Assembly: GCA_900764045.1 (NCBI GenBank)
Contig: CAAFMN010000024.1
Span: 14,492-78,491 of the forward strand
Length of the DNA stretch: 64,000 nt
Direction: 5' to 3'
Source: Clostridia bacterium
GTDB lineage: Bacteria; Bacillota; Clostridia; Lachnospirales; Bianqueaceae
In this document: positions 29,844 to 62,489 of the stretch, in pieces
Numbering within the stretch: position 1 is the stretch's first letter
How the letters are laid out: every line of letters begins with the position of its first letter
Program-made: the position numbers and the translations under genes
The notes under the pieces: model-generated
What the model saw: only the letters and a program-made list of their open reading frames with translations
Told to the model about the DNA's origin: nothing
Databases searched by the model: none

Positions 29844-31149
29844 TTTTGTTAAAAAGTTTTTCTCCAAAAATCTTTTGTTAAAGATATTCTCCGTTGTATT
29901 CTCATTTTGTCTGTGGGTGATGGTCGTCAACCAGCAAGACCCTGTAACGACGGAGACGATTCATAATATACCGATTGCCATACAGAACGAAAATTATTTT
30001 GAAGAGCAGAACCAGCATGTTACACTGGAATCGGAGATGAGGCTCAGTGTGACAGTGAGCGGACGTCGATCGATCGTAGAGAATCTGACGGCGGATAATT
30101 TTAACGCGTATATCGATTATCTGGCTGTACAGCCGGAGGAAGGACGCGCGGAGGTTTCCTGTACGGTTGATGATCGGAACGTGACAGTGAAGCATCAGAG
30201 TGTATCCTATGTCAGGCTTAATGTGGAAGATATCGTATCCAAGGAGTATACGATTCAGCTCCGCACGGAAGGAACGCCGGCGGAGGGGTATGTTGTCGTC
30301 GCGCAGGACGCGTACGCGGTAATGGAACCGTCGGTTGTAATCCTTTCCGGACCGCAGAGTCAGATTGACAGAATCGCTTCCGCGGAAGCCGTGCTGGATG
30401 TACAGGACGCTTCTGATACGGTATCGGGCAAGGGCAAGGCCATCACTTTCCTGGATACGGACGGCAATCCGGTGCTTCTGGATGAGCTGGAGGATATCTC
30501 CTATTCGGCCAAAGTGATGATGCAGCTGAGCGTGCCGGTGTATTTTGTCCAGGAGGTTCCGATCCGCACGGTGGAGATCACGGAAGATCCGAATAATGAG
30601 TATTATGTGGATAGTAGCAGCCTCTCGCAGGAGTCTGTTCAGCTCTACGGTCCCAAGAATGTTCTGGCCGGTATTACAGAGATTGAGCTTGCGGCGGTGT
30701 CGGCAGCAGATAAAACCGCGACATTCCAGCAGAGCTATGACCTGGCGGCAGTTTGTACCAAGATGTCTCAGGAATACGGAGTGCATATAGGACTCGTCGG
30801 CGGCAGCGCGTCGCAGACGACTCTGACAGTCAATATGAAGAAAAAAGAGATCCGAAGTTTCAGCATTACAGGGCAGAACTTTACCTGGCAGAACTCCGTC
30901 AAAGGCAAGACCTATACCTTGGCGGACAGCAGCGCTATCGTCCAGATACAGGGGAAGCCTTCAGCGCTGGACAGCCTGACATCGGCCAATATTCGCTGTA
31001 TGGCAGATGTAGGGGCATTGACCGAAAACGGAACGTATGAGGTGAGTATAGTCTATGCAGCGCCGGAGGGCCTGAAGGTTTACGGAGCGCCGCAGACACT
31101 CAGTATCGTGGTCGCGGATGAAGATACAGCGGGAACAGCGCAATCATAA
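29836..31149 (+). CDS. cdaR: CdaA regulatory protein CdaR (YbbR-like domains)
   Basis: N-terminal TM segment plus repeated YbbR-like domains, translationally coupled to cdaA. Confidence 0.85.
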   Translation: MLDFVKKFFSKNLLLKIFSVVFSFCLWVMVVNQQDPVTTETIHNIPIAIQNENYFEEQNQHVTLESEMRLSVTVSGRRSIVENLTADNFNAYIDYLAVQPEEGRAEVSCTVDDRNVTVKHQSVSYVRLNVEDIVSKEYTIQLRTEGTPAEGYVVVAQDAYAVMEPSVVILSGPQSQIDRIASAEAVLDVQDASDTVSGKGKAITFLDTDGNPVLLDELEDISYSAKVMMQLSVPVYFVQEVPIRTVEITEDPNNEYYVDSSSLSQESVQLYGPKNVLAGITEIELAAVSAADKTATFQQSYDLAAVCTKMSQEYGVHIGLVGGSASQTTLTVNMKKKEIRSFSITGQNFTWQNSVKGKTYTLADSSAIVQIQGKPSALDSLTSANIRCMADVGALTENGTYEVSIVYAAPEGLKVYGAPQTLSIVVADEDTAGTAQS

Positions 31150-31174
31150 CAAGCAGTATGGGAGGAGCGGCCAC

Positions 31175-32833
31175 ATGCCGAAGTTTTATAAAAAGAGTCG
31201 GCTGGAATTTGTCAGAAACCACTGGGGTAAGGATTTCAGCGACAGTGTGCAGGACGATCTGAATTTTCCGGATCTGGAAGAGTTCTTTGTAGACATGATG
31301 AAGCGGGCGGATTGGATCCTGGATGACCAGACCTGGAACGACATGGAGATGAACCGCATATTCTGCAAGCTGGACCGGGCCTATTCCATGCCGGGACAGC
31401 AGATGCTGTATAATATGCTGCGTACGCTGATCTTCGATGAGGAGGAGTTGAAGCGGCGGGACCGGGTGATGGATTATATCCAGCACAATGGAGAGGCAAG
31501 GGATAAGATCGCCTGCCTTCTCTTCTATCTTGGAAAAGTGGAGTATGATGGGGCAGCGTCCCTATTGTTCCATGGGATTCCTAAGCTGCCGGATTCCGCG
31601 TCCTGGGCTAACGGTCTGGCTCTGGCCATGCTGGCGGCACTTGTTTCCATCCCGTTTATGGGCTTTGGCGGATTGATGATGACAGCGGTTATGTTTGTAA
31701 TCAATACCGTTTACCATCAAAAGCTCAACGCCAGAACAGAAGCGACGATGCCGGGCGTTCAGTTCATCGCGAGGATGCTTACGGTTGCGGAAGAGATGGG
31801 TAATATGGATATTCCGCAGCTCGATAAGGGATATCTGAGCTTTTTCCGTAAATGTGTAAAGAAGTGCGGAATCATCAAGAAAAAGGCAGGCCGACTCGGA
31901 ATCGGAGGCAATGATCCGATCGGACTTGTAGAATATCTCAAGATCTTGTTCCTGACAGAGGACCGTGCTTTCATCCGGTGCCTGAAATATGTGGAGCAGG
32001 AGGCGCCTGTACTGCGGGTCCTGTACCGTAAGATCGGAGAGCTGGACGCATTGATGGCGATGGCATCCTTCCGCAGAGGGCTGCGCCGCATGACCAAGCC
32101 GGTATTTGTTTCGGAGCCGAAGTATTTTAAGGTAGAGAATATCACGCATCCGTTGCTGACCAAGGGTGTGCCCAATTCCCTGGAGATGACGGGGGGCAAT
32201 GTAGTGATCACCGGATCCAATATGTCCGGTAAATCCACGTTTTTGCGGACATTGTCCACGGGAGCGGTGTTGGCGCAGACCTTCTACACGGTTCCGGCGG
32301 ACTCTTACACGGCATCCTTTTTCAATATCCTGACATCCATCAGTCCGAGCGATAACCTGATCGAGGGCAAGAGTTATTATATGGCGGAAGCCGAGGCGCT
32401 GCTGCGGATGGTGCAGACACTGGACGAGAACCGGACCTCGTTGCTGATGATCGATGAGATCTTCCGTGGGACCAACCCCATTGAGAGAGTGGCGGCAGCC
32501 TCTTCATTGCTGTCCTATCTGGCCAGACACAATACGATGGTCATTGTAGCGACCCATGATATTGAGATTACACAAAAGGTGGCAGATCAATATACCAGTT
32601 ATCATTTTAGTGAGAATGTCACGAAGGATGCGCTGGATTTCGACTATAAGCTGAAGCCGGGAGTTCTGAAAGTGCCGAACGGTATCCGAATTTTGGAATA
32701 TCTGGGATATCCGCAGGAGATTACGGACGAAGCCTATCGGGAGACCGGTTATGTCGGATTGACAGCTGCCGAAGAGAAACAAAATCAAGATCAAGATAAA
32801 AATACTATACAGGGGGTAGATCAAGATGAGTAA
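31175..32833 (+). CDS. MutS-related protein (MutS domain III/V ATPase with TM segments, no mismatch-binding domain)
   Basis: Walker A (GSNMSGKST), MutS signature (LMIDEIFRGTNP) and a THD motif. Hydrophobic helices lie around residues 160-200. It occupies the position where glmM normally follows cdaR. Confidence 0.75.
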   Translation: MPKFYKKSRLEFVRNHWGKDFSDSVQDDLNFPDLEEFFVDMMKRADWILDDQTWNDMEMNRIFCKLDRAYSMPGQQMLYNMLRTLIFDEEELKRRDRVMDYIQHNGEARDKIACLLFYLGKVEYDGAASLLFHGIPKLPDSASWANGLALAMLAALVSIPFMGFGGLMMTAVMFVINTVYHQKLNARTEATMPGVQFIARMLTVAEEMGNMDIPQLDKGYLSFFRKCVKKCGIIKKKAGRLGIGGNDPIGLVEYLKILFLTEDRAFIRCLKYVEQEAPVLRVLYRKIGELDALMAMASFRRGLRRMTKPVFVSEPKYFKVENITHPLLTKGVPNSLEMTGGNVVITGSNMSGKSTFLRTLSTGAVLAQTFYTVPADSYTASFFNILTSISPSDNLIEGKSYYMAEAEALLRMVQTLDENRTSLLMIDEIFRGTNPIERVAAASSLLSYLARHNTMVIVATHDIEITQKVADQYTSYHFSENVTKDALDFDYKLKPGVLKVPNGIRILEYLGYPQEITDEAYRETGYVGLTAAEEKQNQDQDKNTIQGVDQDE

Positions 32834-35201
32834 GAAAACCTTGCAGGAAATGCAGCCGCTGGCAGATGTCCTGAACAGAGATATCGTCTGCGCATGCGGC
32901 AAGACGCACCGTGCCAATATCGACGCGGTCGTTATCGGACGTGGAGCCATGGAATACGTTCCGGAGCTGCTGCAGCAGCACGGTATGAAGACGGTAATGC
33001 TTCTGGAGGATACGCATACGCATGAGGCTGCCGGAGAACAGGCGGCTCAGTTGATCCGGAACGCTGGAATCGAGGTCTATGAACATATTTATCAGCGCGC
33101 GGATGGATGGCTGACGGCGGATGAAGTAGCGATGGAGGAAGGCGTGAATGCTTTTCGCGCCTGTGAGAACCGCCCGGACGTGATTATCTCCGTAGGTTCC
33201 GGTACGCTGAACGATCTGGGAAAGGTGATCGGAGAGATGCTGGGCGGCGTGCCGCAGTGGATCATTGGAACCGCTGCTTCTATGGACGGATACGCGTCTA
33301 CGGTAGCAGCGCTGGTGCGCAACAATCTGAAGGTAACAGAATACTACAATCCGCCCAAGGTCATCATCGGCGATATGGCGGTGATGTGCAAAGCTCCGAG
33401 GTCTATGACACTGGCAGGAATCGGCGATATGGCAGCTAAGTACAATTCCGGCCTGGACTGGAAGCTCAGCCATCTGATCAATGGAGAATATTATTGCGAT
33501 TTTGTAGCTAAGGCCATGTTAAAGGTAACGGACCAGATCATCGATCTGGCGTTGGAAGCTCCGGAAGAAGGAGAGTTTGGCGATGAGCTGCTGGCGAGAT
33601 TGATGGAAGGACTGGTTCTGTCCGGCGTATATATGAGCTATATGGGATCTTCCCGAGCAGCTTCGGGTTCTGAGCATCATTTCTCTCATTTTTGGGAGAT
33701 GTGGCTGCAGCTGAACGGAAAGCCCGCGATCTATCACGGAACCAAGGTAGGCGTAGGTACGCTGATCATGGACCGTTTGTACCGTGAGTTCCTGACATTG
33801 GATATTGAGGCGCGCCGTGTTATTCCGAGGCTGCGCAAGTTTGATGAGGCGGCATACCGCAAGAAGCTGGAAAAGGTATATGGCGCCGCCGCTCCGGCCA
33901 TTCTGGCTGACTATCATTATGACGCGGAAGAGAGAATCCGCCGGTTGGGATTTATTTTGGAGAATCGCCGCACGATCAATGCGATTATCCGTGAGGCGCT
34001 GCCTTCGCTGGATAAGATGCGCAAGGCGATGGAGCATGTAGGCGCGGTTCGTGATTGGACGGGATTGCCCCACATCACGGGTGAGGTGGCGTTGCAGGCG
34101 CTGCTGTATTGCAAGGAGATGCGTCCCCACTATACCATGTTGCAGATGCTGCAGGACGTAGGATATAACATCAAGAAGTTCGCGCCCAAGATGGTTGAGG
34201 CAGGATATCTGCGCCTGGATCAGATTCAGATGCGGGACCCGTTTGTACTTCCGGTAGAGGAAGAGGGCAAATACTATCTGTTCGGCACGACCGATCCCAG
34301 CTGCTGGAGAGGTCCCTTCTATGGATTTGATTGTTTTGTAAGCGAGGATCTGGAGCATTGGGACGGACCGATCGCCGCTTTCCGGCCGGATGAGAATTTC
34401 TGGGGAACCCGGAACAACTGGGCTCCGGAGGTGCATCGCTATCGCGGTAAGTATTATATGTTCGCGACCTTTGGATCGGAGAAGCGCTATAAGGGTACGC
34501 AGATCCTGCGTTCTGACCGTCCGGAGGGTCCCTATATGCCTATATCCGACGGCCCGGTAACACCGGCGGAGTGGGACTGCCTGGATGGTACGTTCTACCT
34601 GGATCCGGACGGACAGCCGTGGATTGTATTCTGCCATGAATGGACGCAGATTATAGACGGAGAGATTGTGGCCATGCCTTTGAAAAAGGATTTGACCGGA
34701 CCGGCCGGAGATCCTGTTAAGCTTTTCTCGGCATCGGAAGCTTCCTGGGCATCCGGACGTCCGTGGAAGGAACGTCACCCGGAGTCAGACAGCGACGCCT
34801 ACAGCTATGTAACGGATGGCCCGTTTATGGTAGAAGACGGGGATCAGTTGATGATGCTCTGGTCTGGAAGAGGCCCCAAGGGTTATGCCATGGGCAGCGC
34901 ATATTCTGAGGGCGGAATTCTTGGCCCCTGGAAGCAGAACGAGCAGCTTGCCTTTGAAGAAGACGGCGGCCATGGTATGGTCTTCCGTAAATTTACGGGC
35001 GAATTGATGATGACAGTGCATCAGCCCAATCAAACGCCCAACGAGCGTCCTAAGTTCTTTGAGGCGAAGATTCAGAATAAGGCGATTGTACTTGCTTCCG
35101 CTAAGGAAGAGCCGGAACAGAAGCCGGAGGAGCAGGCGAAACCGCTCAAGAGACAGCAAGGCGTTCATGTAAAGGATGAGATGCCCTATTGGCTTCTGTA
35201 A
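32826..35201 (+). CDS. fusion protein: AraM/EgsA-like glycerol-1-phosphate dehydrogenase domain plus GH43 glycoside hydrolase domain
   Basis: The N-terminal ~430 aa carries Fe-ADH/G1PDH-like motifs (GSGTLNDLGK, TAASMDGYAS, HGTKVG). The C-terminal ~330 aa carries GH43 beta-propeller motifs (DPFVLP, WAPEVH, FCHEW, GPFMV). Confidence 0.7.
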   Translation: MSKKTLQEMQPLADVLNRDIVCACGKTHRANIDAVVIGRGAMEYVPELLQQHGMKTVMLLEDTHTHEAAGEQAAQLIRNAGIEVYEHIYQRADGWLTADEVAMEEGVNAFRACENRPDVIISVGSGTLNDLGKVIGEMLGGVPQWIIGTAASMDGYASTVAALVRNNLKVTEYYNPPKVIIGDMAVMCKAPRSMTLAGIGDMAAKYNSGLDWKLSHLINGEYYCDFVAKAMLKVTDQIIDLALEAPEEGEFGDELLARLMEGLVLSGVYMSYMGSSRAASGSEHHFSHFWEMWLQLNGKPAIYHGTKVGVGTLIMDRLYREFLTLDIEARRVIPRLRKFDEAAYRKKLEKVYGAAAPAILADYHYDAEERIRRLGFILENRRTINAIIREALPSLDKMRKAMEHVGAVRDWTGLPHITGEVALQALLYCKEMRPHYTMLQMLQDVGYNIKKFAPKMVEAGYLRLDQIQMRDPFVLPVEEEGKYYLFGTTDPSCWRGPFYGFDCFVSEDLEHWDGPIAAFRPDENFWGTRNNWAPEVHRYRGKYYMFATFGSEKRYKGTQILRSDRPEGPYMPISDGPVTPAEWDCLDGTFYLDPDGQPWIVFCHEWTQIIDGEIVAMPLKKDLTGPAGDPVKLFSASEASWASGRPWKERHPESDSDAYSYVTDGPFMVEDGDQLMMLWSGRGPKGYAMGSAYSEGGILGPWKQNEQLAFEEDGGHGMVFRKFTGELMMTVHQPNQTPNERPKFFEAKIQNKAIVLASAKEEPEQKPEEQAKPLKRQQGVHVKDEMPYWLL

Positions 35202-37568
35202 TGGGAGAAGAAGGGGCAGTTCATGTCTCCATACGGCAGATGGTTGAATTCATCTGCCGTGGCGGAGATCTTGCCAGTGGGGGCTTCAGCGGACCGGAGC
35301 GGGCTCTGGAGGGTACGAGGATTCATCAGAAGCTGCAAAAGAGCCGTTCCGCAGCCTATAGGAACGAAGTTCCCATGCTGCTTGCGGTATCTCTCGAGGA
35401 TGGGCTGTGCCTGGAAGTTGAGGGCCGCGCGGACGGAGTGGAAGAGCTGATGGATCTGGAGGCTCCCTGCCGTATCGAAGAGATCAAGTCAACCTATGCG
35501 TCCGCGGAGCATTTGGGCTTTTCATATGAGCCCGCGCACCGCGGACAGCTTTTGTGTTATGGGCATATTCTGTGCGAGAAGGAAGGATATGCCGCCGTTT
35601 GGCTCCGCCTGACGTATTATCAGATGGAACAGGAAAAAGAGTATACGTATGATGAGCTGTGGCGGGCGGAAGATCTGCGGAACTTTTTTACAGAGACGGT
35701 AGAAGCCTACGCAAAATGGCTGCGCTGGAGCAGCGAACATCTTGCCAAACGTACGCGGAGCCTGCAGAACCTGAAATTTCCCTTTCCCGCGTACAGAACA
35801 GGACAGCGGACGATGGCCGCCTATGTATACAAGACTATTCAATCCGGCGGCGGAATTTTTATACAGGCGCCCACAGGAACCGGCAAGACGGTGTCGGCGC
35901 TTTTCCCGGCCCTGAAGGCTATGGCCAATGGATTGACATCCAAGCTCTTTTATCTGACGGCCAAGACGGCGACGGGACTTGCGGCGCAGGATGCCTTGGA
36001 CAGACTGTCAGAGCAGAAGCCGGAGCTGATCAGTATTACATTGACGGCCAAAGATAAGATCTGTCCTCTGGAGGAAAGAAACTGCGATCCGGAGAACTGC
36101 CCGTATGCCAAGGGACATTATGACCGGATCAATCAGGCAGTGTACGCGGCAATTACGCAGTACCGGCAGATTGGGCGGGAGCTTCTGCGCAGCCATGCGG
36201 AAACGTATCGGGTATGCCCTTTTGAGCTGGGTCTGGATATCAGTACCTGGGCCGATGTGATCATTGGAGATTATAATTACGCGTTTGACCCGACAGCGTC
36301 CTTAAAACGTTTTTTCCAGGACCAGAAAACAGAGTATACTCTATTGGTGGATGAAGCCCATAATCTGCCGGATCGGGCGCAATCTATGTACAGTGCGGAA
36401 GTGACCGGGCAGATGTTTTTTGAGTTTGGACGGATCTTCCGCGGCAAACCGGTTTCCTGGAGGAGAGCTCTCCGGCGGGCACAGCGACGATTGGTTTGAC
36501 CAAAAGGGAGAAGAAGTCAAAGAAGGCGAATGCATTACCTATTCCGCACCCTCCCAGGAGCTGGTAACGCTGCTGGCGGAGTTCAATACTCAGCTTGCCG
36601 AGTGCCTGACGCAGGAGGCAGGAGTGGAAGAGTGGATGGAGCTGTATTTTCAGGTACAGTTTTTCCTGAAGATGGAGGAAGAGTACGATGAGAGTTCCGT
36701 CACCTATCTGGAAAAAATAAGCGGTCAGCCAGTTTACAGGATTTTTTGTGTCCATCCGGCACAGAAACTGTGGCAGCGCTATGAGAAAGTGCGTTCCGTC
36801 ATTCTCTTTTCCGCAACGCTTTTACCCATTGAATATTATAAAGAGCTTTTGGGAGGCAATGATCCGGAGCATCCCATGGACGCGATCTATCTGGAATCCC
36901 CGTTTGATCCGGCACATAAACAGGTGCTTGTGGCAGCCGGAATCCGCGCGGATTATCAGAACCGGGAGAGGACGGTGGGAGCCGTAGCCGCTGTGATCTA
37001 CCGCACCGTACAGGCCAAGGAGGGAAATTACATGGTCTTTTTCCCATCCTATCCGTATTTGCGGCAGGTCGCCGCTTTTTTTCGAGATGCTTATCCGGAG
37101 ATAAACCTCTGGGAGCAGAGCCCGGGGATGAATGAAGAGGAGAGAGAGGATTTCCTGGCGCGATTTCAGGAAAATCCGCCCTGGGGTATCGGATTTTGCG
37201 TACTTGGGGGCGTTTTTTCGGAGGGAATCGATCTTAGAGGCCGGCGGCTGATCGGAAGCCTGATTGTGACGGTAGGATTTCCGCAGATCGGTATGGAGCG
37301 CGACCTTGTGAGAGAATATATGGATCGCCTTTGCGGACGTGGATTTGACTATGCCTACAGGTACCCGGGACTGAACCGGGTGTTTCAGGCGGCCGGACGC
37401 GTGATCCGCACCGAAGAGGACCGGGGGATCATCTTATTGATTGATGAGCGCTACCGGGAGAGAAGATATCTTAAGAGTATGCCGCCGGACTGGAATCCCA
37501 GAATCGTTCCGGCGCAGGAGATCGAGAGAAACATAATAGAATTTTGGAGAAAACAGGAGTTAGAGTAA
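35201..37568 (+). pseudogene. Cas4-like PD-(D/E)XK nuclease plus DinG/XPD-family Fe-S helicase, interrupted by a frameshift near 36420-36500
   Basis: N-terminal nuclease motifs are RADGV, IEEIKS and QLLCY. The helicase carries a Walker A (APTGTGKT), a 4-Cys cluster (CPLEERNCDPENCPYAKG), a DEAH box (VDEAHNL) and a Helicase_C_2 domain. The two halves lie in different frames and overlap at 36420-36499. Confidence 0.65.
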
Positions 37569-43389: not shown

Positions 43390-43398
43390 AGAATATTT

Positions 43399-43438
43399 GC
43401 CAAAGATTTTCAAAATGAGAATCTTTGGCATTTTTATT
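43399..43438 (+). terminator. rho-independent terminator after glmS
   Basis: Stem gccaaagatt/aatctttggc followed by a tttttattt tract. Confidence 0.7.
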
Positions 43439-43771: not shown

Positions 43772-45181
43772 ATGTATAGACAAACCAAAAACAGTTTGGA
43801 CAAGCATTGGGATTTTATCATTGTCGATATCTTTGCCCTGGAGCTGTCCCTGTTTCTTGCATATTTGCTACGGAATCAAGGGGAATTGCCTATTTATAGC
43901 GAGCTTTACCGCAATCTGATCCTGATCATTCCGCTGCTACACATCGTAATGGCCTTTTGTATCAATAATTATTCCGGCATTCTTAGAAGAGGCTATCTTC
44001 TGGAGCTGAAAAGCGTCCTGAAGCAATGCCTCGCTATCTCTGTTGTCCTGCTCATGTATTTTTTTGTATTTCAATCTACAGATGAATATTCACGCTATGT
44101 CCTGATCGGAACAGCGGTATTCAGCGTCCTTTTTGTTTATCTTGGAAGAATCGGTCTGAAAGCCCTGAAAAAGCATATTGGAAAAGCCAATGTTTCCTGC
44201 ATGCTTGTGATCGCTCCGTCCGATGAGGTTTCGACGCTGCTTGAGAATCTTCAGAAGGATATCTACAACCGGTATCGCATCAGCGGTATTGTGTATAGTG
44301 ATAAGGAAGTGGAAGAGGGACAGAGTGTAGAAGGAATTCCCGTCGTCGCGGATATGTCGACATATAAGGAATATGTGCGTCAGCAAGTGGTGGATGAGAT
44401 CTTTGTGGCTGTGAAGCCAAGCGATGAGAGAATGGGCGAGATCATGAAGATCGCGGAGGAGATCGGAGTGACAATTCATCTTAGTATCCCCATTCTGTTT
44501 CCTACGTCTTTCCCACAGATAATCTCCAGAATCGGTCCCTATACGGCAGTGACCTCTTCCCCAAAGCTTGTTACGCAGACGCAGCTCTTTATCAAGCGGA
44601 TGATGGACATTGCGTCAGCGCTGATCGGCCTTGTATTTACCGGCATTGCGTATCTATTGGTCGCGCCGATCATCAAGATCCAGGCGCCCGGTCCGGTGTT
44701 ATTCTCACAGACCCGAGTGGGGCGGAACGGCAGACCGTTCAAAATCTATAAATTCCGTTCTATGTATGTGGACGCGGAGGAGCGGAAAAAGGAGCTCATG
44801 AAGGAAAATGAGATGCAGGGTCTGATGTTCAAGATGGAAAACGATCCGCGAATTTTTCCTTTTGGTCGGTTTATCCGTAAGATGTCCATCGATGAGCTGC
44901 CGCAGTTCTGGAATGTGCTCAAGGGGGACATGTCGCTGGTAGGGACAAGGCCGCCGACAATGGACGAGTATAAACAATACGAACTGCACCATAAGTTCCG
45001 CCTGGCCTTTAAGCCGGGCATCACAGGCATGTGGCAGGTTTCCGGCAGATCCTCGATCAAGGACTTCGAGGAGGTTGTCCGCTTGGATGGCGAATATATC
45101 TGCAACTGGTCCATTTTGTTGGATATTAAGATCATATTGAAAACGATCAAAGTCGTTTTAAGTCACGCAGAAGCGGAATAA
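43772..45181 (+). CDS. wbaP: polyprenyl-phosphate hexose-1-phosphate transferase (WbaP/CpsE-like initiating sugar transferase)
   Basis: Multi-TM N-terminus and a C-terminal Bac_transf domain (PGITGMWQVSGRS). Confidence 0.85.
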   Translation: MYRQTKNSLDKHWDFIIVDIFALELSLFLAYLLRNQGELPIYSELYRNLILIIPLLHIVMAFCINNYSGILRRGYLLELKSVLKQCLAISVVLLMYFFVFQSTDEYSRYVLIGTAVFSVLFVYLGRIGLKALKKHIGKANVSCMLVIAPSDEVSTLLENLQKDIYNRYRISGIVYSDKEVEEGQSVEGIPVVADMSTYKEYVRQQVVDEIFVAVKPSDERMGEIMKIAEEIGVTIHLSIPILFPTSFPQIISRIGPYTAVTSSPKLVTQTQLFIKRMMDIASALIGLVFTGIAYLLVAPIIKIQAPGPVLFSQTRVGRNGRPFKIYKFRSMYVDAEERKKELMKENEMQGLMFKMENDPRIFPFGRFIRKMSIDELPQFWNVLKGDMSLVGTRPPTMDEYKQYELHHKFRLAFKPGITGMWQVSGRSSIKDFEEVVRLDGEYICNWSILLDIKIILKTIKVVLSHAEAE

Positions 45182-45211
45182 ATAGTTTATGGTAAGAACT
45201 TTATTAAGACC

Positions 45212-45577
45212 ATGCTGAATGTTGGTAATACACACGATACTGTTCGTGTGGTCAATGACCAGATCGGCACACCGACCTATACATATGATTTGGCTCGACT
45301 GCTCGTCGATATGAATGAAACCGAGAAGTACGGTTATTATCATGCAACCAACGAGGGTGGCTATATCAGCTGGTATGATTTCACGAAAGAAATCTATCGT
45401 CAGGCTGGATATAAGACAGAAGTGGTTCCTGTCACTACGGCGGAGTACGGTCTGAGCAAGGCGGCTCGCCCGTTTAACAGCCGGTTGGACAAGAGCAAGC
45501 TGGTGGAAGCTGGATTTACTCCGCTTCCGACCTGGCAGGATGCACTGAGCCGCTATCTGAAAGAAATCGAGGAGTAA
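45212..45577 (+). pseudogene. rfbD: C-terminal fragment of dTDP-4-dehydrorhamnose reductase
   Basis: Matches only the C-terminal ~120 aa of RfbD (QIGTPTYTYDLA...). The N-terminal Rossmann half is absent. Confidence 0.65.
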
Positions 45578-45583
45578 AAGAAA

Positions 45584-46192
45584 ATGGGACAGATTAAAGT
45601 TGAGAAAAACGTAGGTGGCATCAAGGGTCTTTGTGTGATTGAGCCGGCTGTTCACGGCGATGCCCGTGGCTATTTTATGGAAACCTACAACGAAAAAGAT
45701 ATGAAGGAAGCTGGCATCGACATTCATTTTGTACAGGATAATCAGTCCATGTCCACGAAGGGGGTGCTGCGCGGTTTGCATTTCCAGAAGCAGTATCCGC
45801 AGTGTAAGCTGGTACGCGCCGTGCGCGGAACTGTGTTTGATGTCGCTGTTGACCTGAGAAGTGATTCTACGACCTATGGCAAATGGTATGGTGTTATCCT
45901 GTCGGCCGAGAACAAGAAGCAGTTCCTTATCCCAGAAGGCTTTGCACATGGATTTTTGGTACTGAGTGATGAGGCAGAGTTCTGCTATAAGGTCGACGAT
46001 TTCTGGCATCCAAATGACGAAGGCGGCATGGCTTGGAATGATCCAGAGATTGGCATTGAATGGCCGGAACTGAAGGGTGAGTACAAGGGAAGCGCAAGTG
46101 CAGAAGGCTACACGCTGGAAGACGGTACGGCACTGAATCTGAGTGATAAGGATCAGAAGTGGCTGGGATTGAAGGATACATTTAAATTTTAA
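45584..46192 (+). CDS. rfbC: dTDP-4-dehydrorhamnose 3,5-epimerase
   Basis: Cupin-fold RmlC motifs (RGLHFQ, GFAHGF), 202 aa. Confidence 0.9.
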   Translation: MGQIKVEKNVGGIKGLCVIEPAVHGDARGYFMETYNEKDMKEAGIDIHFVQDNQSMSTKGVLRGLHFQKQYPQCKLVRAVRGTVFDVAVDLRSDSTTYGKWYGVILSAENKKQFLIPEGFAHGFLVLSDEAEFCYKVDDFWHPNDEGGMAWNDPEIGIEWPELKGEYKGSASAEGYTLEDGTALNLSDKDQKWLGLKDTFKF

Positions 46193-46622
46193 GAACACAG
46201 GGGTAGGAAGAATGCAGCGTGAAAACGAAGTACAACACGTATTTCTGGTAGGAGCTAAGAGCTTAGGTGCTTATGGCGGGGAGTGTGAAATAATATGGGC
46301 AACCAGAGAAAAGCCTGATTTCATGCGGGTTTACGCGGCTTGGCCTTTTCACCTCAACCTGTTTCTGCCTGTCATGGTGCGTTATAACCAGCGTGATTTT
46401 AGGTGCTAATGGCTTCTGGTTGCGCTCTATACTTAACCCACCACAGCGAAAGCTGATAGAGCAGAAAACGGAATAAGGAGGTACGAGGACAAGTCTGCAT
46501 GCAGATTCAATTGAATCCGCCTTCATGTTGATTATTAGGAAGCAAAAATACACTTGAAAGCAAGAGACTGTGTGATTTTCACAACGATTTAAGAAGCAAA
46601 AAAGAATTGAGGAGTAAAGATT

Positions 46623-47735
46623 ATGTACGATTATTTGGTGGTTGGTTCCGGCCTTTACGGGGCCACGTTTGCGCAGCAGGCTAAAGCACACGGTAAATCA
46701 GTCCTTGTTATCGACAAGAGGCCGAACATTGCCGGTAATATCTATACTGAAAAAGTAGAAGGTATCAATTTCCATAAGTATGGCGCGCATATTTTTCACA
46801 CTAATAATAAGGAAGTCTGGGATTACCTGCAGCAGTTCACTGCGTTCACCCGTTTCACCAACTCTCCAGTAGCAAACTATAAGGGCGAACTATACTCCAT
46901 GCCCTTCAATATGTATACCTTCAATAAAATGTGGGGAGTTGTGACACCGGAAGAGGCACAGGCCAAGATCGACGAGCAGCGAAAAGAGATAACGGGAGAG
47001 CCGCAGAATCTGGAAGAGCAGGCTATCAGTCTTGTTGGTCGTGACATCTATGAAAAGCTCGTCAAGGGCTACACAGAAAAGCAGTGGGGACGTGACTGCA
47101 AGGATCTGCCTGCCTTTATCATTAAGAGACTTCCGGTAAGGTTGACCTTCGATAACAACTACTTCAATGCTTTGTACCAGGGCATTCCGATTGGTGGCTA
47201 CACCAAGATGGTAGAGCACATGCTGGACGGTATCGAAGTGCGGCTTGGTGTTGACTATCTGGAACACAAAGATGAGTTGGACGCACTGGCTGAGAAGGTC
47301 ATCTATACTGGACCGATTGATGCTTACTTCCAGTATTCCCTTGGTTATCTGGAGTACCGTAGTGTGAGATTTGAAAACGAGATTCTGGACAAGCCAAATT
47401 TCCAGGGTAACGCAGCTGTGAACTACACAGATCGTGAGACGCCGTGGACACGAATCATTGAGCACAAGTGGTTTGAATTCGGCAAGGATGAGAATGGAAA
47501 TGACCTGCCCAAGACTATTATATCTCGTGAGTACAGTTCCGAGTGGAAGCCGGGTGACGAGCCGTATTATCCGGTCAATGATGCAAAGAACGGGGCGCTC
47601 TATACCCAGTATAAGAAGCTGGCTGACCAGGAGACTGATGTGATCTTCGGCGGCCGCCTCGGTGAGTACAAATATTATGACATGGATGCTGTGGTGGCAT
47701 CGGCGCTGGAAATGTGTGAGAAGGAATTGGCTTAA
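46623..47735 (+). CDS. glf: UDP-galactopyranose mutase
   Basis: MYDYLVVGSGLYGA FAD-binding motif and NIAGNIYT motif, 370 aa. Confidence 0.95.
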   Translation: MYDYLVVGSGLYGATFAQQAKAHGKSVLVIDKRPNIAGNIYTEKVEGINFHKYGAHIFHTNNKEVWDYLQQFTAFTRFTNSPVANYKGELYSMPFNMYTFNKMWGVVTPEEAQAKIDEQRKEITGEPQNLEEQAISLVGRDIYEKLVKGYTEKQWGRDCKDLPAFIIKRLPVRLTFDNNYFNALYQGIPIGGYTKMVEHMLDGIEVRLGVDYLEHKDELDALAEKVIYTGPIDAYFQYSLGYLEYRSVRFENEILDKPNFQGNAAVNYTDRETPWTRIIEHKWFEFGKDENGNDLPKTIISREYSSEWKPGDEPYYPVNDAKNGALYTQYKKLADQETDVIFGGRLGEYKYYDMDAVVASALEMCEKELA

Positions 47736-47766
47736 AGCCTAATACAGATTAAAAGGGGTAGGCGAT

Positions 47767-48594
47767 ATGAGCCAAAATAAACAAAGCAAACCGTTAGACA
47801 TCAAAATCATCATTGCTGCACACAAGAAATATCGTATGCCACAGGATGATATATACTTACCACTTCATGTTGGCGCAGAGTGCAAAGCGCCTATTGGATA
47901 TCAGGGCGATAACACAGGCGATAATATCTCCACCCTCAATCCATACTTCTGTGAGCTTACCGGAATGTACTGGATGTGGAAGAATCTGCAGGCTGATTAT
48001 CTGGGCTTGGCGCATTATCGTCGGCATTTTTGTTTCAGAAAGAAAAAAGCTGAAAACGACGAAGAGAGCAAGTGGAAATCGGTATTGAACAGCAAAGAAG
48101 CACAGATTCTGTGCAAACAGTATGATGTTATCGTTCCTGAAAAACGCCATTATGTGATTGAAACGCTTGAATCGCATTATGCTCATACTCATTATATAGA
48201 ACACTTGGAAAAGACACGGGAGATTATCGGCGAACGATATCCGCAGTATCTTGATAGTTATAACAAGATCCTTAAAAGGAAAAGCGGTTACATGTTCAAT
48301 ATGTTTCTGATGAGAGCGGATCTTGTTGATAAGTATTGCTCGTTCCTTTTCGATGTGCTGTTTGAACTGGATAAAAGAGTAGATACGAGCGAATATTCAG
48401 CTTTCCAGGCGCGATATCCCGGAAGAGTTGGAGAAATTCTGCTTAATGTCTGGCTCGATAAAGAGGCGGAAGAGCAAGGGATGAAGATAAAGGAAATCCA
48501 ACATATACACATGGAGCCGATTAACTGGTGGAACAAAGGGACTGCGTTCCTCAAAGCTAAGTTCTTGGGCAGAAGATATGAGCATGGGTTTTGA
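47767..48594 (+). CDS. DUF4422-domain protein (putative glycosyltransferase commonly linked to galactofuranose loci)
   Basis: IIIAAHKKY...GDNISTLNPYFCELTGMYWMWKN motif pattern. Confidence 0.65.
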   Translation: MSQNKQSKPLDIKIIIAAHKKYRMPQDDIYLPLHVGAECKAPIGYQGDNTGDNISTLNPYFCELTGMYWMWKNLQADYLGLAHYRRHFCFRKKKAENDEESKWKSVLNSKEAQILCKQYDVIVPEKRHYVIETLESHYAHTHYIEHLEKTREIIGERYPQYLDSYNKILKRKSGYMFNMFLMRADLVDKYCSFLFDVLFELDKRVDTSEYSAFQARYPGRVGEILLNVWLDKEAEEQGMKIKEIQHIHMEPINWWNKGTAFLKAKFLGRRYEHGF

Positions 48595-48645
48595 TAGAAG
48601 GAAATGGTAGAAGAAACAAAAAAGTTTCACGAAAGGGTTTGACAG

Positions 48646-49764
48646 ATGGGAGAGATGAGGACAGGCTCGCTTAGCAAGCAAGCAAGCAAGCGGATAGAAT
48701 GGCTTGATGCATTAAAAGGCTTTGCGATTATAGCTGTTGTGCTGGGACACACCCTTTTGGGATATACAGAGAATGATGCGTTTGGAGAATATAACGAGTT
48801 CTTCTGTAGGCTGAAAGAGTGGATTTATATATGGCATATGCCGTTATTTATTTGTTTGAGCGGATTTTCATTTTGCCTTGCATATTATCGTAAGGATGCA
48901 TTGGACGCTAACAGTAGACTGAAAACAAGCAAGGTGAAACGGCAAATAATCAATCTGGTGCTTCTTTATGTCATGTTCAGCATTGTGTTCTACGCACTAA
49001 AGATTCCGCTGGCTGCCTTTACTGATAATAAATTGACGATTAGTGAAGCTGCTGTAAATCTGGTATTTCCTAATACGCTGATGTGGTATTTATGGGTCAT
49101 GGCAATTTACTACTTTATCATTCTCTATTGCAAGCCAGCTATGGAGGTGATTGCAGAAAAAACAATGGCTATTTTAGGAATTCTTTTGATAGTCGCCGTT
49201 GCGCAAAGAGTGAGTGGTAACTTTGTCGATTGGAGGCTTTGTTTTGGGAATTTCGTTCACTGTGCCTTTTATTTCTGCTTTGGTATGGCGCTGTGCCTAT
49301 ACAAAGAACGATATGAGAACAAGAAACACGAAAACAAGTGGCTATGGATTGGAATACTTATAGTGATGGTCCATTTTGTATGCTATATGGCAATAAGCGC
49401 AGAAATGGCGGACATTGAAGTGGTTGCCGTTGCTAACACAATCATTAATGAATTAATTGCTATTTTGATAATCGCATTAGCTTTTTCAGTGGCGTATCAT
49501 TGGCAACATGCAGGTGGGCTTTTACCAGCTCTCGGTAGAGCATCGCTTGTGATATATCTTCTCCACACCTACATAGTGACTGCAATGAAGGTGGTTGCAA
49601 TAAGAATGGGAGTATGTAGCAGCATGGTAATTGATATTGTAGTAATAGCTATGAGCGTTATTGTGCCGATAGCCATATGTTATTTTGTGGATTGGATTAG
49701 AAGAAAGAACAGACTGGTTGGAGCAATTTTTGCTCCGGGAAAACACATAAAAATATTCGATTAG
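48646..49764 (+). CDS. membrane acyltransferase (acyltransferase-3 family, O-acetyltransferase-like)
   Basis: About 10 TM helices and a WLDALKGFAII...GHT N-terminus. Confidence 0.7.
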   Translation: MGEMRTGSLSKQASKRIEWLDALKGFAIIAVVLGHTLLGYTENDAFGEYNEFFCRLKEWIYIWHMPLFICLSGFSFCLAYYRKDALDANSRLKTSKVKRQIINLVLLYVMFSIVFYALKIPLAAFTDNKLTISEAAVNLVFPNTLMWYLWVMAIYYFIILYCKPAMEVIAEKTMAILGILLIVAVAQRVSGNFVDWRLCFGNFVHCAFYFCFGMALCLYKERYENKKHENKWLWIGILIVMVHFVCYMAISAEMADIEVVAVANTIINELIAILIIALAFSVAYHWQHAGGLLPALGRASLVIYLLHTYIVTAMKVVAIRMGVCSSMVIDIVVIAMSVIVPIAICYFVDWIRRKNRLVGAIFAPGKHIKIFD

Positions 49765-49839
49765 ATTAGTTGATTTGTTTTAGATACATCCGACCAGATT
49801 AAAAGGAGTAAAGGACGGATTTCTGGAGGAAGATATGCC

Positions 49840-50859
49840 ATGAACTTGGAGTTGACGTTTATTATTCCAGCATATAATTGTGAAAACTCACTTCGCAGAT
49901 GCGTTGCCAGCATAGAAAACGACATTCAGGAAAGTAGTGCTCCTTGTGAAGTACTTATTATAGAAAATGGATCAACCGATAAAACCTGGTGTGTAGCGGA
50001 GGCTTTGAGAGAAGAGCATGAAAATATTGTTCTCTTAAAAAGTGATAAAGGTGTATCGAAAGCCAGAAATAAAGGAATAGAACAAGCGCATGGCAAACGG
50101 ATTGCTTTTGTCGATGCTGATGATGAGTGGATTCACGGATCCATAGCGAAAATACTGAAACATGTGGAAAATGGCTGTATTGATTTATTGATGTGTGGGT
50201 ATTATAAAGGCGAAAAGCTCATTGCCCATGATTATAAAGCCATGAACACGGTATTTTTCGATGACTTGGATGATTTTAAGGCGTGGCTATTGGTGAGGCC
50301 GACAGTGCGTATGCAGGTTTGGGCAAAGGTTTTCAAAAAAAGTATAATAGAGCAATATGATTTGCGATTCAATGAAGGACTTTCTTTCTCGGAGGATTCA
50401 GAATTCCTTTTAAGATATGTTCAGAATTGTTCTTCGGTGCTTGTGTTGGACTTTCCTGTTTACAGATACTCGTGTTCTGGCGTATCCGCCGTGAGAACAT
50501 ATAGCCCAGATAGACAAAAGATGTATTTAAAGTCTCTGGAGGTCACTTCAAAAGATATTGAACCCGAGTCGGCAACTGTGAGAGAAGCCTATGTGGAATA
50601 TGTGCTGGCGCATCTAAATCTGATTACGGTACATGACATTTTTGACTTGCAAATCAAAGGCTCTTTTTGGAAAAAGTACAAAAATATGAGAAAATTGATA
50701 AAAGAGCCGACGTTTGAAAGGGCATTAAAGGATATTCCTTTCAAAAGCTGTTTAACGATGCAGTTGTCCCCCGAGGCCTGCATAAAATGTCATCTTAGCA
50801 TAATGGCTGGAGTAATCTGCTATTTAAAGGCATATCTGAATTTTAGGCAACAGAGATAA
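49840..50859 (+). CDS. glycosyltransferase family 2
   Basis: TFIIPAYN motif and a DAD motif (FVDADDEW). Confidence 0.8.
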   Translation: MNLELTFIIPAYNCENSLRRCVASIENDIQESSAPCEVLIIENGSTDKTWCVAEALREEHENIVLLKSDKGVSKARNKGIEQAHGKRIAFVDADDEWIHGSIAKILKHVENGCIDLLMCGYYKGEKLIAHDYKAMNTVFFDDLDDFKAWLLVRPTVRMQVWAKVFKKSIIEQYDLRFNEGLSFSEDSEFLLRYVQNCSSVLVLDFPVYRYSCSGVSAVRTYSPDRQKMYLKSLEVTSKDIEPESATVREAYVEYVLAHLNLITVHDIFDLQIKGSFWKKYKNMRKLIKEPTFERALKDIPFKSCLTMQLSPEACIKCHLSIMAGVICYLKAYLNFRQQR

Positions 50860-50964
50860 AATTCGCTCCTAAAAAGATTTGCGATAATGCTTATAATGCA
50901 TCACTATCTATTATAGGCCAGCAGTCAATAATATTTGTGGAATGTTCGAGGTGGAAAATAAACA

Positions 50965-51837
50965 ATGCAGGCAATCCTTGTAATAGCGCACAAAAACATA
51001 GAGCAGGTTACAGAGCTCTCTAAACTATTGAAAAGAAAATTTGAAGTTTATATTCATATAGACAAAAAATGCATAGTGCCAGAGCCCCAGATGCGTATGT
51101 TACTAAACACAGGTGCTCATGTCTTTCAAAAAGTGGATGTTAGATGGGGTGGGTGGGGCGTTGCGGAAGCTGCCCGTGTTTTGTTTAGAGAAGCCTTGAA
51201 AAATAAGGACATTACATACATGCACGTTATTTCCGGAGAGGATTATCCCGTGAAATCTCCGGAGATAATATATAATTTTTATGAAAACAACAACAAAATC
51301 TATATGCAGTGCAATCCAGCTGAGGGATCTGTGAAGTCTGGAGAGTCGCAGGTGCTTTGGCAGAAGTATTATTTCGATTATGATAAAATCAACAGAAGAA
51401 CAACATTTGGAAAGATATATCATAGATATACTCTTCTGAAACAGACACTATTGCATGTTGATAAATTCAAAGAGTTAGGCGTGAATTTGAAACTGTATCA
51501 AGGTGCAAACTGGATGGACATTCCAAGAGATGCAGCTGAGTTCTTCATGAAATATTTTGATGAGCATGAAAATGTGAGAAAGCTGTTTATGACTGGTTAT
51601 TGTCCAGATGAATTTTGGATTCAGACAATTTTGAAGAATTCTGAGTTCGAAGCAAGGATAGACGGAGATATACACAGGTATGTCAAGTGGGAAAAGCAAT
51701 ATGATAATTATCCTGCTGTGTTGGACGAACGTGAGTTCTCTAAGATCAAAGGCGGGAACTATCATTTCGCCAGAAAATTCAATCCACAGTATTCAGCTGC
51801 GTTGATAAGAATGATCGATGATGAATTGCTTTCCTAA
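50965..51837 (+). CDS. GT14-like (Core-2/I-branching family) glycosyltransferase
   Basis: ILVIAHKNIEQVTEL N-terminus resembles bacterial Branch-domain proteins. Confidence 0.5.
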   Translation: MQAILVIAHKNIEQVTELSKLLKRKFEVYIHIDKKCIVPEPQMRMLLNTGAHVFQKVDVRWGGWGVAEAARVLFREALKNKDITYMHVISGEDYPVKSPEIIYNFYENNNKIYMQCNPAEGSVKSGESQVLWQKYYFDYDKINRRTTFGKIYHRYTLLKQTLLHVDKFKELGVNLKLYQGANWMDIPRDAAEFFMKYFDEHENVRKLFMTGYCPDEFWIQTILKNSEFEARIDGDIHRYVKWEKQYDNYPAVLDEREFSKIKGGNYHFARKFNPQYSAALIRMIDDELLS

Positions 51838-51864
51838 ATTACAATATAGAGGGAACAAAAGGCG

Positions 51865-52968
51865 ATGAGAATTTTAGTATTTGGTATGACGGAGAATCCA
51901 GGAGGCGTAGAGAGCTTTCTAATCAACTACTATCGTCATATAGACAAAAATAAAATACAGTGGGACTTCCTCTGCAACTCTCATAATCCTGTTGCGTATG
52001 AGGACGAGTTGATAAGCCTTGGCGGTCGGTGCTTCCATATCTCGGCCAGAAGCGCAGACAGGCAGAAATATCGGCAGGAGCTTGACTCTGTTTTTAAGGA
52101 GCATGCGAAAGAGTGGAGCGCAATCTGGGTGAACGTGTGTAGCCTTGCCAACATTGATTATTTGAAGGTTGCAAAAGAATACGGGATCGAAAAGCGAATC
52201 ATACACAGTCATAACTCTCAGAATATGGATAATTGGCTGCGCGGACTGTTACATAAATGGAACAAGCGACAGATCGGGAAAATTGCCACGGATTTCTGGG
52301 CTTGCTCCGAGGACGCGGCAAAGTGGTTTTACAGTGGTGAGACACTGAAAAAGGCCGTGGTGATCCACAACGCAATTGATGTGGAGCGTATGCGTTTTGA
52401 CGAGGAAAAAAGAAAAGCCATCCGCACAAAATACGGATGGAAGGATAAGTATATTATTGGAAATGTTGGAAGACTTCATTTCCAGAAAAATCAAAGCTTC
52501 GCACTTGATATTTTTGCGGAATATCTGAAAAAGAACAAGAATGCACTTCTTGTTCTGGTCGGTCAGGGCGAAGATGAACGAATGCTGAAAGAGAAGGCTG
52601 ATAAGTTGGGCATAGCGGATAGAGTATTCTTCGCTGGGTTGCAAAGCGACATTCAAGCGTGGCTGAGCTGCTTTGATTTGTTTCTGTTCCCATCAAGGTT
52701 TGAAGGTCTAGGTATAGCAGCTTTGGAGGCACAAGTCAATGGCTTGACCACAATTTCTTCAAAAAAAGTTATTCCGGATGAGGTCAAAATGAATGATAAC
52801 TTCTATTTCATGGATTTGGAGGCCGGAGCCGAAGCGTGGAGCAAACAGATTGAAGAGATAAGTGGATACGAGCGCGCTGAGTACAGCGAGGTGAAGAAGC
52901 GTTTCGTTGAAAAGGGCTACGACATAGACACAGAGACAGGCAAGCTGGAAACGCTGTTGATGGGCTAA
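51865..52968 (+). CDS. glycosyltransferase family 4 (GT-B)
   Basis: EGLGIAALEAQVNGL C-terminal GT4 motif. Confidence 0.8.
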   Translation: MRILVFGMTENPGGVESFLINYYRHIDKNKIQWDFLCNSHNPVAYEDELISLGGRCFHISARSADRQKYRQELDSVFKEHAKEWSAIWVNVCSLANIDYLKVAKEYGIEKRIIHSHNSQNMDNWLRGLLHKWNKRQIGKIATDFWACSEDAAKWFYSGETLKKAVVIHNAIDVERMRFDEEKRKAIRTKYGWKDKYIIGNVGRLHFQKNQSFALDIFAEYLKKNKNALLVLVGQGEDERMLKEKADKLGIADRVFFAGLQSDIQAWLSCFDLFLFPSRFEGLGIAALEAQVNGLTTISSKKVIPDEVKMNDNFYFMDLEAGAEAWSKQIEEISGYERAEYSEVKKRFVEKGYDIDTETGKLETLLMG

Positions 52969-52992
52969 GACGATGAAAGAGGAAGCAGTTTC

Positions 52993-54042: not shown

Positions 54043-54088
54043 ATCAATAACTAAGAGAATTACGTCAATTTTTACGATGGAGGAATAC

Positions 54089-55339: not shown

Positions 55340-55391
55340 ATAAAAACAGTCATGTAAATAAAGAATACAATTTATCAAATGGAGAAAATGG

Positions 55392-56837: not shown

Positions 56838-56928
56838 ATTTGATGTGTAAAGTGTAGGACGGATTAAAATGATTTGGCTGATTTGACGAAGGAAGCTTTT
56901 AAATGACAATTTAGATAAGGAGTATGAC

Positions 56929-58347: not shown

Positions 58348-58472
58348 CTATTAAATAATAAAATTTTCAACCATTTTGTGAACGCAAGCTTCTAATGGAT
58401 AGGTCTACTTTATTTTCTTGTGAGATAAGTCGTTACTTTAAACTTAAAATAGGAAGGGAGTACAAGAGACTT

Positions 58473-61270: not shown

Positions 61271-61376
61271 CCATTTTGCCCCGGCTTTTTTGTTTGCCGA
61301 TCAGTTATCAAAAATTTTCAAAATTTTTTTGATAACTGTATATCAAACGCCCTCTCCCGAATGTATAGGTGAGAGG
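61271..61376 (+). promoter_or_regulatory. conserved ~100-bp box, copy 1, upstream of the sigma-like gene
   Basis: cattttgcc...ttttcaaaa...tgtatatcaaaCgccctctcccGaatgtAtaggtgaGagg, near-identical to copy 2. Confidence 0.45.
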
Positions 61377-61532
61377 AGGAACAGTTTCGCTGCCATCAGC
61401 GGCAGAAAAATAAATGTAGCAGGAGAAGTCTTGGCTTCCCGTTCAAAAAAAACGGGCAGTGTCAGGGCGATTTTCTGCTGTATATTTTTCGCTCTTCCCT
61501 GCCCGGAGCCGGAAGGCAGAAAGGCAGGACGT

Positions 61533-62410: not shown

Positions 62411-62445
62411 AGACACCTATTATAAATAAAGCAGTTTAAGTAAAG

Positions 62446-62486
62446 CCCTCCGATTGGCCTGAACCGCCAGCCGGAGGGCTTTTTTG
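62446..62486 (+). terminator. rho-independent terminator after the small ORF
   Basis: Stem ccctccg...cggaggg followed by cttttttg. Confidence 0.65.
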
Positions 62487-62489
62487 CGC

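Follow-up and report, generated by a model that had tools for sequence, protein, structure and literature searches.

AraM, the sn-glycerol-1-phosphate dehydrogenase (G1PDH) of Bacillus subtilis, is a single-domain protein of 394 amino acids (aa) encoded in the araABDLMNPQ-abfA operon, and the sn-glycerol-1-phosphate (G1P) that it forms feeds PcrB ether-lipid synthesis (work cited in PMC4244643 and PMC13400652). PlsY and PlsC were recently shown to accept G1P (PMC13400652), and interest in bacterial G1P has grown since that result. Canonical members of glycoside hydrolase family 43 (GH43), such as HoAraf43 of H. orenii (4QQS), Abf43A of C. japonicus (3QED-3QEF) and the intracellular arabinanase of Geobacillus (3CU9), are five-bladed beta-propellers with an Asp/Asp/Glu catalytic triad. 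Here we describe a gene that carries a domain of each kind in one reading frame. It lies at 32826..35201 on the plus strand of a 64,000-nucleotide (nt) stretch of a Clostridia bacterium (GTDB family Bianqueaceae; assembly GCA_900764045.1, contig CAAFMN010000024.1, positions 14,492 to 78,491 of the forward strand), the whole of which is called the window below.

The gene is genuine and selectively maintained, and it encodes a cytoplasmic two-enzyme protein in a new domain combination of two families that were both already known. The most likely reading, to which we assign a probability of about 0.6, is that two independent activities are carried on one constitutively expressed, tail-targeted polypeptide. 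A G1PDH-GH43 protein was not described in the literature that we searched; an automatic JGI name alone records the architecture. The lineage bears on the role of AraM-type G1PDHs outside Bacillus and offers three handles: a G1PDH fixed in a housekeeping gene array instead of a sugar operon, a conserved terminal peptide that could reveal the place or partner of the enzyme, and a GH43 domain, covalently attached, from a very large subfamily with a variant catalytic acid.

Architecture and distribution of the fused gene

The original prediction, made from the sequence alone, had proposed a 791-aa open reading frame (ORF) that fuses an AraM-like dehydrogenase of ~430 aa to a GH43 domain of ~330 aa. 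The ORF listing, the translation and direct reading of the sequence agree on a single frame at 32826..35201 (+), which runs from an ATG start through 791 codons to a TAA stop and is free of internal stops. Both expected domains were found by Pfam above cutoff (Fe-ADH_2 at aa 36-191, 90.4 bits, cutoff 28; Glyco_hydro_43 at aa 469-736, 113.9 bits, cutoff 32.2), in agreement with the folds obtained by AlphaFold2 (AF2) and Foldseek. The proposed domain sizes were roughly right and are refined here: G1PDH takes up 455 aa and GH43 290 aa, and the remaining 46 aa are a tail composed of a linker and a terminal peptide. The AF2 model was built on a 121-sequence alignment and reached a predicted local distance difference test score (pLDDT) of 93.2 and a predicted TM-score (pTM) of 0.87, with residues 770-791 disordered.

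The gene signals are those of one translation unit within an array. A Shine-Dalgarno-like sequence resembling a ribosome-binding site (AGGGGG, 32811..32816, +) was read directly 9 nt upstream of the fusion ATG, and no such sequence precedes M469, where a separate GH43 would find an internal start. The gene shares its first 8 nt with the end of the MutS_V gene upstream, and the TAATG at its other end holds its stop codon and, in overlap with it, the likely start codon (ATG) of the helicase gene that follows. A promoter and terminator scan returned nothing specific near the fusion gene; the sole strong terminator of the array is at 43398-43430, after glmS.

Among 5.8 billion proteins searched, we found seven full-length fusion clusters (784-816 aa, 72-100% identity, 100% coverage), which originate from ENA, Logan, JGI and NCBI and each of which contains both Pfam domains. 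In a scan of one genome per GTDB species, the fusion gene was present in seven species-level genomes of gut and rumen Clostridia at 72-99% identity: the human-gut metagenome-assembled genome (MAG) MGYG-HGUT-04224 and a contig in an 'Alloprevotella' bin (98% each), two uncultured Clostridia MAGs and Ca. Faecimorpha stercoravium (~80%), and the rumen MAG RUG12817 and goat MAG RGIG2801 (72%). Together with the shared synteny of these loci, the seven clusters and seven genomes establish that the fusion is real and present in related genomes; the architecture is monophyletic and confined to uncultured Clostridia of the gut and rumen, about seven species in all. Pairwise ratios of nonsynonymous to synonymous substitution (dN/dS) between the window gene and seven orthologous loci ranged over 0.008-0.096 in the dehydrogenase half and 0.023-0.115 in the GH43 half, and amino-acid divergence was nearly equal between the two; both halves are therefore kept by selection as one gene. 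The contig in the 'Alloprevotella sp.' bin (locus L008, CAVGBV010000044.1) is 95% identical to the Clostridia window at the DNA level, and its label is probably the result of binning contamination.

These data also bear on the concern that the fusion is an assembly chimera, or a pair of adjacent genes between which a stop or frameshift was missed. An apparent frameshift in the neighbouring helicase gene shows that sequence errors or pseudogenes do occur in the window; nothing positive speaks for the concern otherwise. Seven clusters, drawn from four data sources, and seven species-level genomes (72-99% identity) all have the ORF uninterrupted. GC content and GC skew stay flat through the gene and on both sides of it, and composition does not change where the two domains meet. 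A conserved tail also follows GH43, which read-through of two adjacent genes would not create. We regard this explanation as effectively refuted, with a negligible probability.

A different two-enzyme protein with an N-terminal AraM-type G1PDH is found in other Clostridia. These G1PDH-HAD-IIA ('AraM-AraL') fusions of ~730 aa, for example protein P0046 of Petroclostridium xylanilyticum, differ from the window protein in that their C-terminal partner is an AraL-like phosphatase and in that GH43 and the LPYWLL tail are absent. The partner is an operon neighbour of AraM in Bacillus, and a pathway link is therefore plausible in proteins of the P0046 type, which mirror the araL-araM gene pair of Bacillus.

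The N-terminal domain (aa 1-455; 32826..34190, +) was assigned to the AraM-type G1PDHs by Pfam, NCBIfam, alignments and Foldseek. The best NCBIfam family was the NAD(P)-dependent G1PDH model NF002022 (154.8 bits), ahead of GldA (53.7 bits), a shikimate kinase/dehydroquinate synthase (DHQS) model (28.3 bits) and AroB (21.2 bits). On this comparison, on which the original prediction had staked its own refutation, the N-terminus is a G1PDH and not a glycerol dehydrogenase or DHQ synthase (154.8 against 53.7 and 21-28 bits). The score misses the NCBIfam equivalog cutoff for G1PDH (154.8 versus 413 bits), so exact functional equivalence is not certified by sequence alone; judging from its name, PRK00843, the model appears to be centred on archaeal EgsA. 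Comparison with sequences in the PDB gave the Ni2+-dependent B. subtilis AraM (9H4X) as the best solved relative (131 bits), followed by archaeal G1PDH chains (86-89 bits); chains deposited as glycerol dehydrogenase reached at best 78 bits (3CE9, a structural-genomics entry) and 39 bits (6CSJ). In Foldseek, 9H4X ranked second (E-value 5e-23, TM-score (TM) 0.81), and the M. jannaschii G1PDH (4RGQ/4RFL) gave a TM of 0.86-0.88.

Alignment with 9H4X, 5FB3 and 4RGQ places the NAD(P)-binding loop at aa 124-130 (GSGTLND) and matches the AGxGD, SGxEH..SH and HGxKVG motifs, which in the window protein read AGIGD (D201), SGSEHHFSH (H284, H285 and H288) and YHG (H304). D201 (33426-33428, +), H284 (33675-33677, +) and H304 (33735-33737, +) are putative metal ligands by alignment. 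As assigned by homology, the NAD(P) loop is intact, and so is an Asp/His/His metal site. The window protein shares with B. subtilis AraM its fold (TM 0.81) and the GSGTxxD, AGxGD, SGxEHHxSH and HGxKVG motifs. It differs in its low identity (24-30%), in the addition of a CxCGxxH motif, the GH43 domain, a disordered linker and a C-terminal peptide, and in its setting, among housekeeping genes without ara genes nearby where AraM is encoded in the ara operon. The CxCGxxH motif (aa 22-28, 32889-32909) is common to clostridial AraM-type G1PDHs, fused and unfused, and missing from 9H4X; it may be a small additional site, for metal binding or for structure. A C-terminal helical extension of ~100 aa on the domain is likewise missing from archaeal G1PDH.

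The distance from the equivalog cutoff (155 versus 413 bits), the identity of just 24-30% to characterised AraM, and the additional CxCGxxH motif and ~100-aa helical extension would suit another DHQS-like or Fe-ADH_2 member, that is, a glycerol, polyol, polyol-phosphate or dihydroxyacetone reductase. We consider this quite improbable: G1PDH models and structures score ~100 bits above the paralogous families, clostridial homologues of 35-40% identity are named sn-glycerol-1-phosphate dehydrogenase by NCBI and JGI, and AraM and archaeal G1PDH stand above the glycerol dehydrogenases in the Foldseek ranking.

One 40%-identical clostridial G1PDH (locus L088, 8001-9416 and flanks) is encoded together with a SorC-type regulator, an ABC transporter (substrate-binding protein, two permeases and a MalK-like ATPase), an AP_endonuc_2 isomerase, a HAD-IIA protein and a further HAD protein. 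This hints that some clostridial AraM homologues serve uptake and oxidation rather than lipid synthesis.

The GH43 domain and its subfamily

The GH43 domain (aa 456-745; 34191..35060, +) is a five-bladed beta-propeller of a 5C0P-like subfamily according to Pfam, alignment and Foldseek, and the AF2 model is all-beta across aa 470-756. Its best solved relative is 5C0P (218 bits, 39% identity, TM 0.90), a structural-genomics entry from B. thetaiotaomicron. 5C0P shares the TD[GA]P motif and an Asp at the general-acid position with the window domain, differing from it in being a stand-alone protein of ~300 aa, where the window domain is embedded in a larger protein; its name, 'endo-arabinase', is an automatic annotation. 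The canonical enzymes are more distant (16-23% identity; TM 0.75-0.76 for 4QQS and 3KST in Foldseek). They have in common with the window domain the five-bladed propeller, the N-terminal xDPx base motif, the WAPE motif and the mid-domain Asp, whereas their acid Glu corresponds to an invariant Asp in the subfamily of the window protein. The original prediction was therefore right on the GH43 family, as Pfam and fold show, and overreached in naming a beta-xylosidase/arabinofuranosidase type; the domain is of the 5C0P-like subfamily with Asp in place of the acid Glu.

By alignment to the canonical positions, D471 (RDPF; 34236-34238, +) is the putative general base and D587 (CLDGT; 34584-34586, +) the candidate pKa modulator. 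The general-acid position is taken by D664 (TDGP; 34815-34817, +), which aligns with the Glu of the EGP motif in 4QQS, 3KST and 8HCJ; 5C0P has the same Asp. In an alignment of 55 subfamily members, made up of the window protein, six orthologous fusions and 48 stand-alone homologues that span many phyla, D587 and D664 occur in all 55 and D471 in 54, the other row having a gap. About 85 further positions are near-invariant in this alignment, and the window domain keeps every near-invariant residue. The Asp-for-Glu exchange, as judged from this alignment, is a subfamily-wide catalytic variant and not a decay of the window gene.

At an E-value of ≤ 1e-20 the subfamily comprises at least 6946 protein clusters, nearly all of them stand-alone proteins of ~300 aa. 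Stand-alone members begin at 'MKT..IQIRDPF' without a signal peptide and are therefore cytoplasmic. Recurring beside them are genes for CUT1-type sugar ABC transporters, LacI regulators, GFO/IDH/MocA oxidoreductases, GH78-like proteins, GH95 and a 695-aa protein that has no Pfam match; a match of the latter to a chain described as 'Glycoside hydrolase family 65 central catalytic' (E-value 3e-4) was too weak to use. One relative of 543 aa (P0211) carries an Asp-acid GH43 member fused in tandem to a canonical GH43 with a Glu acid motif (NEGAAV). The names given to homologues in the source databases conflict ('arabinan endo-1,5-alpha-L-arabinosidase' versus 'beta-xylosidase'), and our literature search found no paper that mentions 5C0P.

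The GH43 domain is most probably an active intracellular glycosidase for imported oligosaccharides, as its conserved residues and the company of its relatives suggest. The alternative is a catalytically inactive module with a carbohydrate-binding, regulatory or scaffolding role, proposed because the canonical acid Glu is missing: D664 stands where 4QQS, 3KST and 8HCJ have the catalytic Glu of EGP, and published activity for 5C0P-like members was not found in the searched literature. The conservation of the acid-position Asp (55/55), the base Asp (54/55), the pKa-modulator Asp (55/55) and ~85 other near-invariant positions is the pattern of an active site and not of decay. The stand-alone members in sugar-utilisation loci beside GH78-like proteins, GH95 and ABC transporters, the tandem fusion of P0211 to a canonical GH43 and a dN/dS of 0.02-0.12 on the GH43 part also speak against inactivity, to which we give little credence. 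If an activity were demonstrated for the GH43 domain of the fusion, it would assign a function to a subfamily of at least 6946 protein clusters.

Linker, terminal peptide and domain history

The GH43 domain is followed by a disordered, low-complexity linker rich in K, E, P and Q (aa 746-783; 35061..35174, +), delimited by orthologue comparison and AF2, in which pLDDT falls below 50 from residue 770. The linker evolves fast, with variable length and sequence and 30-39% identity to orthologues against 75-85% in the domains. The protein then ends in the peptide DEMPYWLL-COOH (aa 784-791; 35175..35198, +; consensus [DE][LM]P[YV][WY]LL). The fusion proteins end in DEMPYWLL, QDMPYWLL, DELPVWLL or EELPYWLL, each after the variable linker, and the terminal peptide is present in 17 of the 17 loci of this G1PDH clade (L001-L017). 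No further ORF ending in it turned up among the 88 loci or within the window. FtsZ and SSB combine a disordered linker with a terminal docking peptide, and the tail of the fusion is formally similar in design; it would serve to dock the entire fusion onto a partner or the membrane.

The nearest G1PDH relatives (P0008-P0015; 53-58% identity, 548-605 aa) are without GH43. Their dehydrogenase domain leads into a low-complexity linker of 100-150 aa rich in K, E, P and A, in some cases with AT-hook-like RGRKPG or RGRPKK motifs, and they end in ...EELPY[YW]LL. They also occupy the same MutS_V-[G1PDH]-DinG-MBL slot (L003-L006 and L014-L017). Distant G1PDHs (≤41% identity) have no such tail and are located elsewhere in their genomes. 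From the slot, linker and tail of the GH43-less relatives it follows that GH43 is placed in frame between the dehydrogenase and the tail. A simple end-to-end fusion of two proteins, as first proposed, does not describe this arrangement, in which GH43 is inserted between the dehydrogenase and a linker and peptide that GH43-less relatives also have.

The most parsimonious history, which we infer from these comparisons, is an ancestral G1PDH-linker-tail protein in a fixed housekeeping slot followed by one GH43 capture. A 5C0P-type gene, otherwise encoding a stand-alone cytoplasmic enzyme of ~300 aa from sugar-utilisation loci, would have been captured in frame in a single event, directly behind the dehydrogenase domain, so that the tail stayed at the very C-terminus.

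Relation of the two activities and genomic setting

Under the reading of two independent activities, the N-domain would interconvert dihydroxyacetone phosphate (DHAP) and sn-glycerol-1-phosphate with NAD(P)H and a divalent metal, and the C-domain would be a glycosidase of inverting mechanism, exo- or endo-acting, for imported oligosaccharides that contain pentose or furanose residues, with D471 as base and D664 as acid. These are probably not consecutive steps of one pathway; most likely the glycosidase would gain, through the fusion, the constitutive expression and localisation of a housekeeping enzyme.

Several points weigh against this reading. The activities of both domains rest on homology and predicted structure; the G1PDH score lies far below the equivalog cutoff (155 versus 413 bits), so that the substrate of clostridial AraM homologues could differ, and we know of none that has been characterised. 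With the Glu-to-Asp exchange at the GH43 acid position, catalysis by the domain is putative. The direction of the event, gain versus loss of GH43, is argued from parsimony only. The pTM of 0.87 suggests a fixed inter-domain interface, which would be compatible with functional coupling, as would an in-frame insertion that is under strong selection in every member and looks like more than a neutral accident. A precedent for an AraM-arabinan association also exists, in the araM genes within arabinan-utilisation clusters of Bacillus and Geobacillus (PMC4428132).

Coupling was raised in the original prediction, for which the fusion would be a 'Rosetta stone' link between G1P formation and arabinan/xylan side-chain hydrolysis. 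In general form, GH43 and G1PDH would act on one substrate stream. In one version, GH43 would trim a pentofuranosyl- or galactofuranosyl-containing glycan that carries or releases glycerol-1-phosphate or glycosyl-glycerol, and G1PDH would oxidise the G1P to DHAP for glycolysis; in another, arabinan breakdown would be tied to G1P formation as in the Bacillus ara operon. Such coupling would be consistent with the strong purifying selection on both halves, with the defined inter-domain arrangement implied by the pTM of 0.87, with araM and araL beside arabinofuranosidases in Geobacillus and Bacillus clusters (PMC4428132), with the AraL-like phosphatase fusions of other Clostridia (P0046) and with the catabolic-looking operon of the 40%-identical clostridial G1PDH (SorC regulator, ABC transporter, sugar isomerase and HAD). 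Against it, a G1PDH gene within 10 kb accompanies stand-alone members of the GH43 subfamily at 0 of 69 loci, and the fusion occurs in seven species only, in a GH43 subfamily of thousands of members from many phyla. The surroundings are of the housekeeping type, with sugar transporter and arabinose genes absent from the 64 kb, and the location and tail of the G1PDH predate the arrival of GH43. The count of 0/69 loci rejects any general link by gene neighbourhood. Given this count and the lack of arabinose genes in the window, the 'Rosetta stone' link is unsupported, and we consider coupling unlikely.

A more elaborate possibility is that the fusion, the linker and the LPYWLL-COOH docking peptide together mark a hitherto unrecognised, spatially organised use of glycerol-1-phosphate in gut Clostridia. 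In a catabolic version, glycosylated glycerol-1-phosphate polymers (lipoteichoic-acid or lipoglycan fragments of neighbouring bacteria, or archaeal lipids) would be degraded, GH43 stripping furanosyl or pentosyl residues and G1PDH feeding the freed G1P to glycolysis. In a biosynthetic version, the tail would tether the enzyme at the membrane or divisome and supply G1P to PlsY and PlsC for heterochiral membranes. We hold either version to be speculative and its probability to be low. On the preferred reading of two independent activities, the fusion is a modest curiosity whose functional coupling is unsupported by the present findings. Characterising the fusion would test the link of G1P metabolism to glycan breakdown; if the domains are functionally unrelated, it would simply illustrate how a constitutively expressed gene can capture a domain.

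The gene content of the 64-kb window was determined by Pfam on long ORFs judged likely to be genes. Upstream of the fusion are genes for replication, cell wall and translation functions (dnaD/dnaI-like, murC, glmU, pth, mfd and prsA), sporulation and tRNA-related genes (spoVT, spoIIE, tilS, ftsH, dus and lysS), the cyclic di-AMP genes cdaA and cdaR, and the gene of the MutS_V protein; downstream are genes for a DinG-type helicase, an MBL hydrolase, a radical-SAM protein, an FAD protein and a NusG-like protein, and glmS. Pfam found neither a sugar ABC transporter in the window nor any gene for the catabolism or transport of arabinose or xylose; an arabinose context is lacking. A Bacillus-type ara operon context (araA/B/D, AraNPQ and arabinofuranosidase genes) is absent from the window, and likewise from the syntenic loci L001-L006. 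The order cdaA-cdaR-MutS_V-fusion-DinG-MBL is identical in the orthologous loci L001 and L002. The gene does lie between MutS-like and helicase genes, as had been stated; it is not out of context there, because MutS_V-G1PDH-DinG-MBL is the ancestral location and is shared with GH43-less relatives.

The upstream neighbour (31118..32833, +) encodes a MutS_V-domain protein of 571 aa without mismatch-binding domains, which has a hydrophobic segment at about aa 160-200 that probably spans the membrane. Its gene is translationally coupled to the fusion gene and syntenic across the clade. The downstream neighbour, a DinG-type helicase gene (DEAD_2 and Helicase_C_2; 35189..37568, +), is also a conserved syntenic gene. 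In the window, the loss of one CGATTGGT direct-repeat copy near 36487, a deletion of 8 bp, breaks it into two ORFs, 35189-36499 and 36420-37568. The frame is intact in the conspecific genomes L007 and L008 (~798 codons) and in more distant relatives (785-794 aa), and the split is either a real pseudogene or an assembly error.

Beyond glmS and the terminator at 43398-43430, a surface-polysaccharide cluster extends over 43772-59426. It contains Bac_transf, Glf (UDP-galactopyranose mutase, 46623-47735), DUF4422, acyltransferase_3, GT2, a Branch enzyme, GT1/GT4, Wzy_C, a Wzx-type flippase and a nucleotidyltransferase, which implies a galactofuranose-containing glycan. At the right end of the window (61290-63323), a sigma-70 region-4 protein and a homologue of the RepA_N replication initiator suggest the edge of an integrated mobile element.

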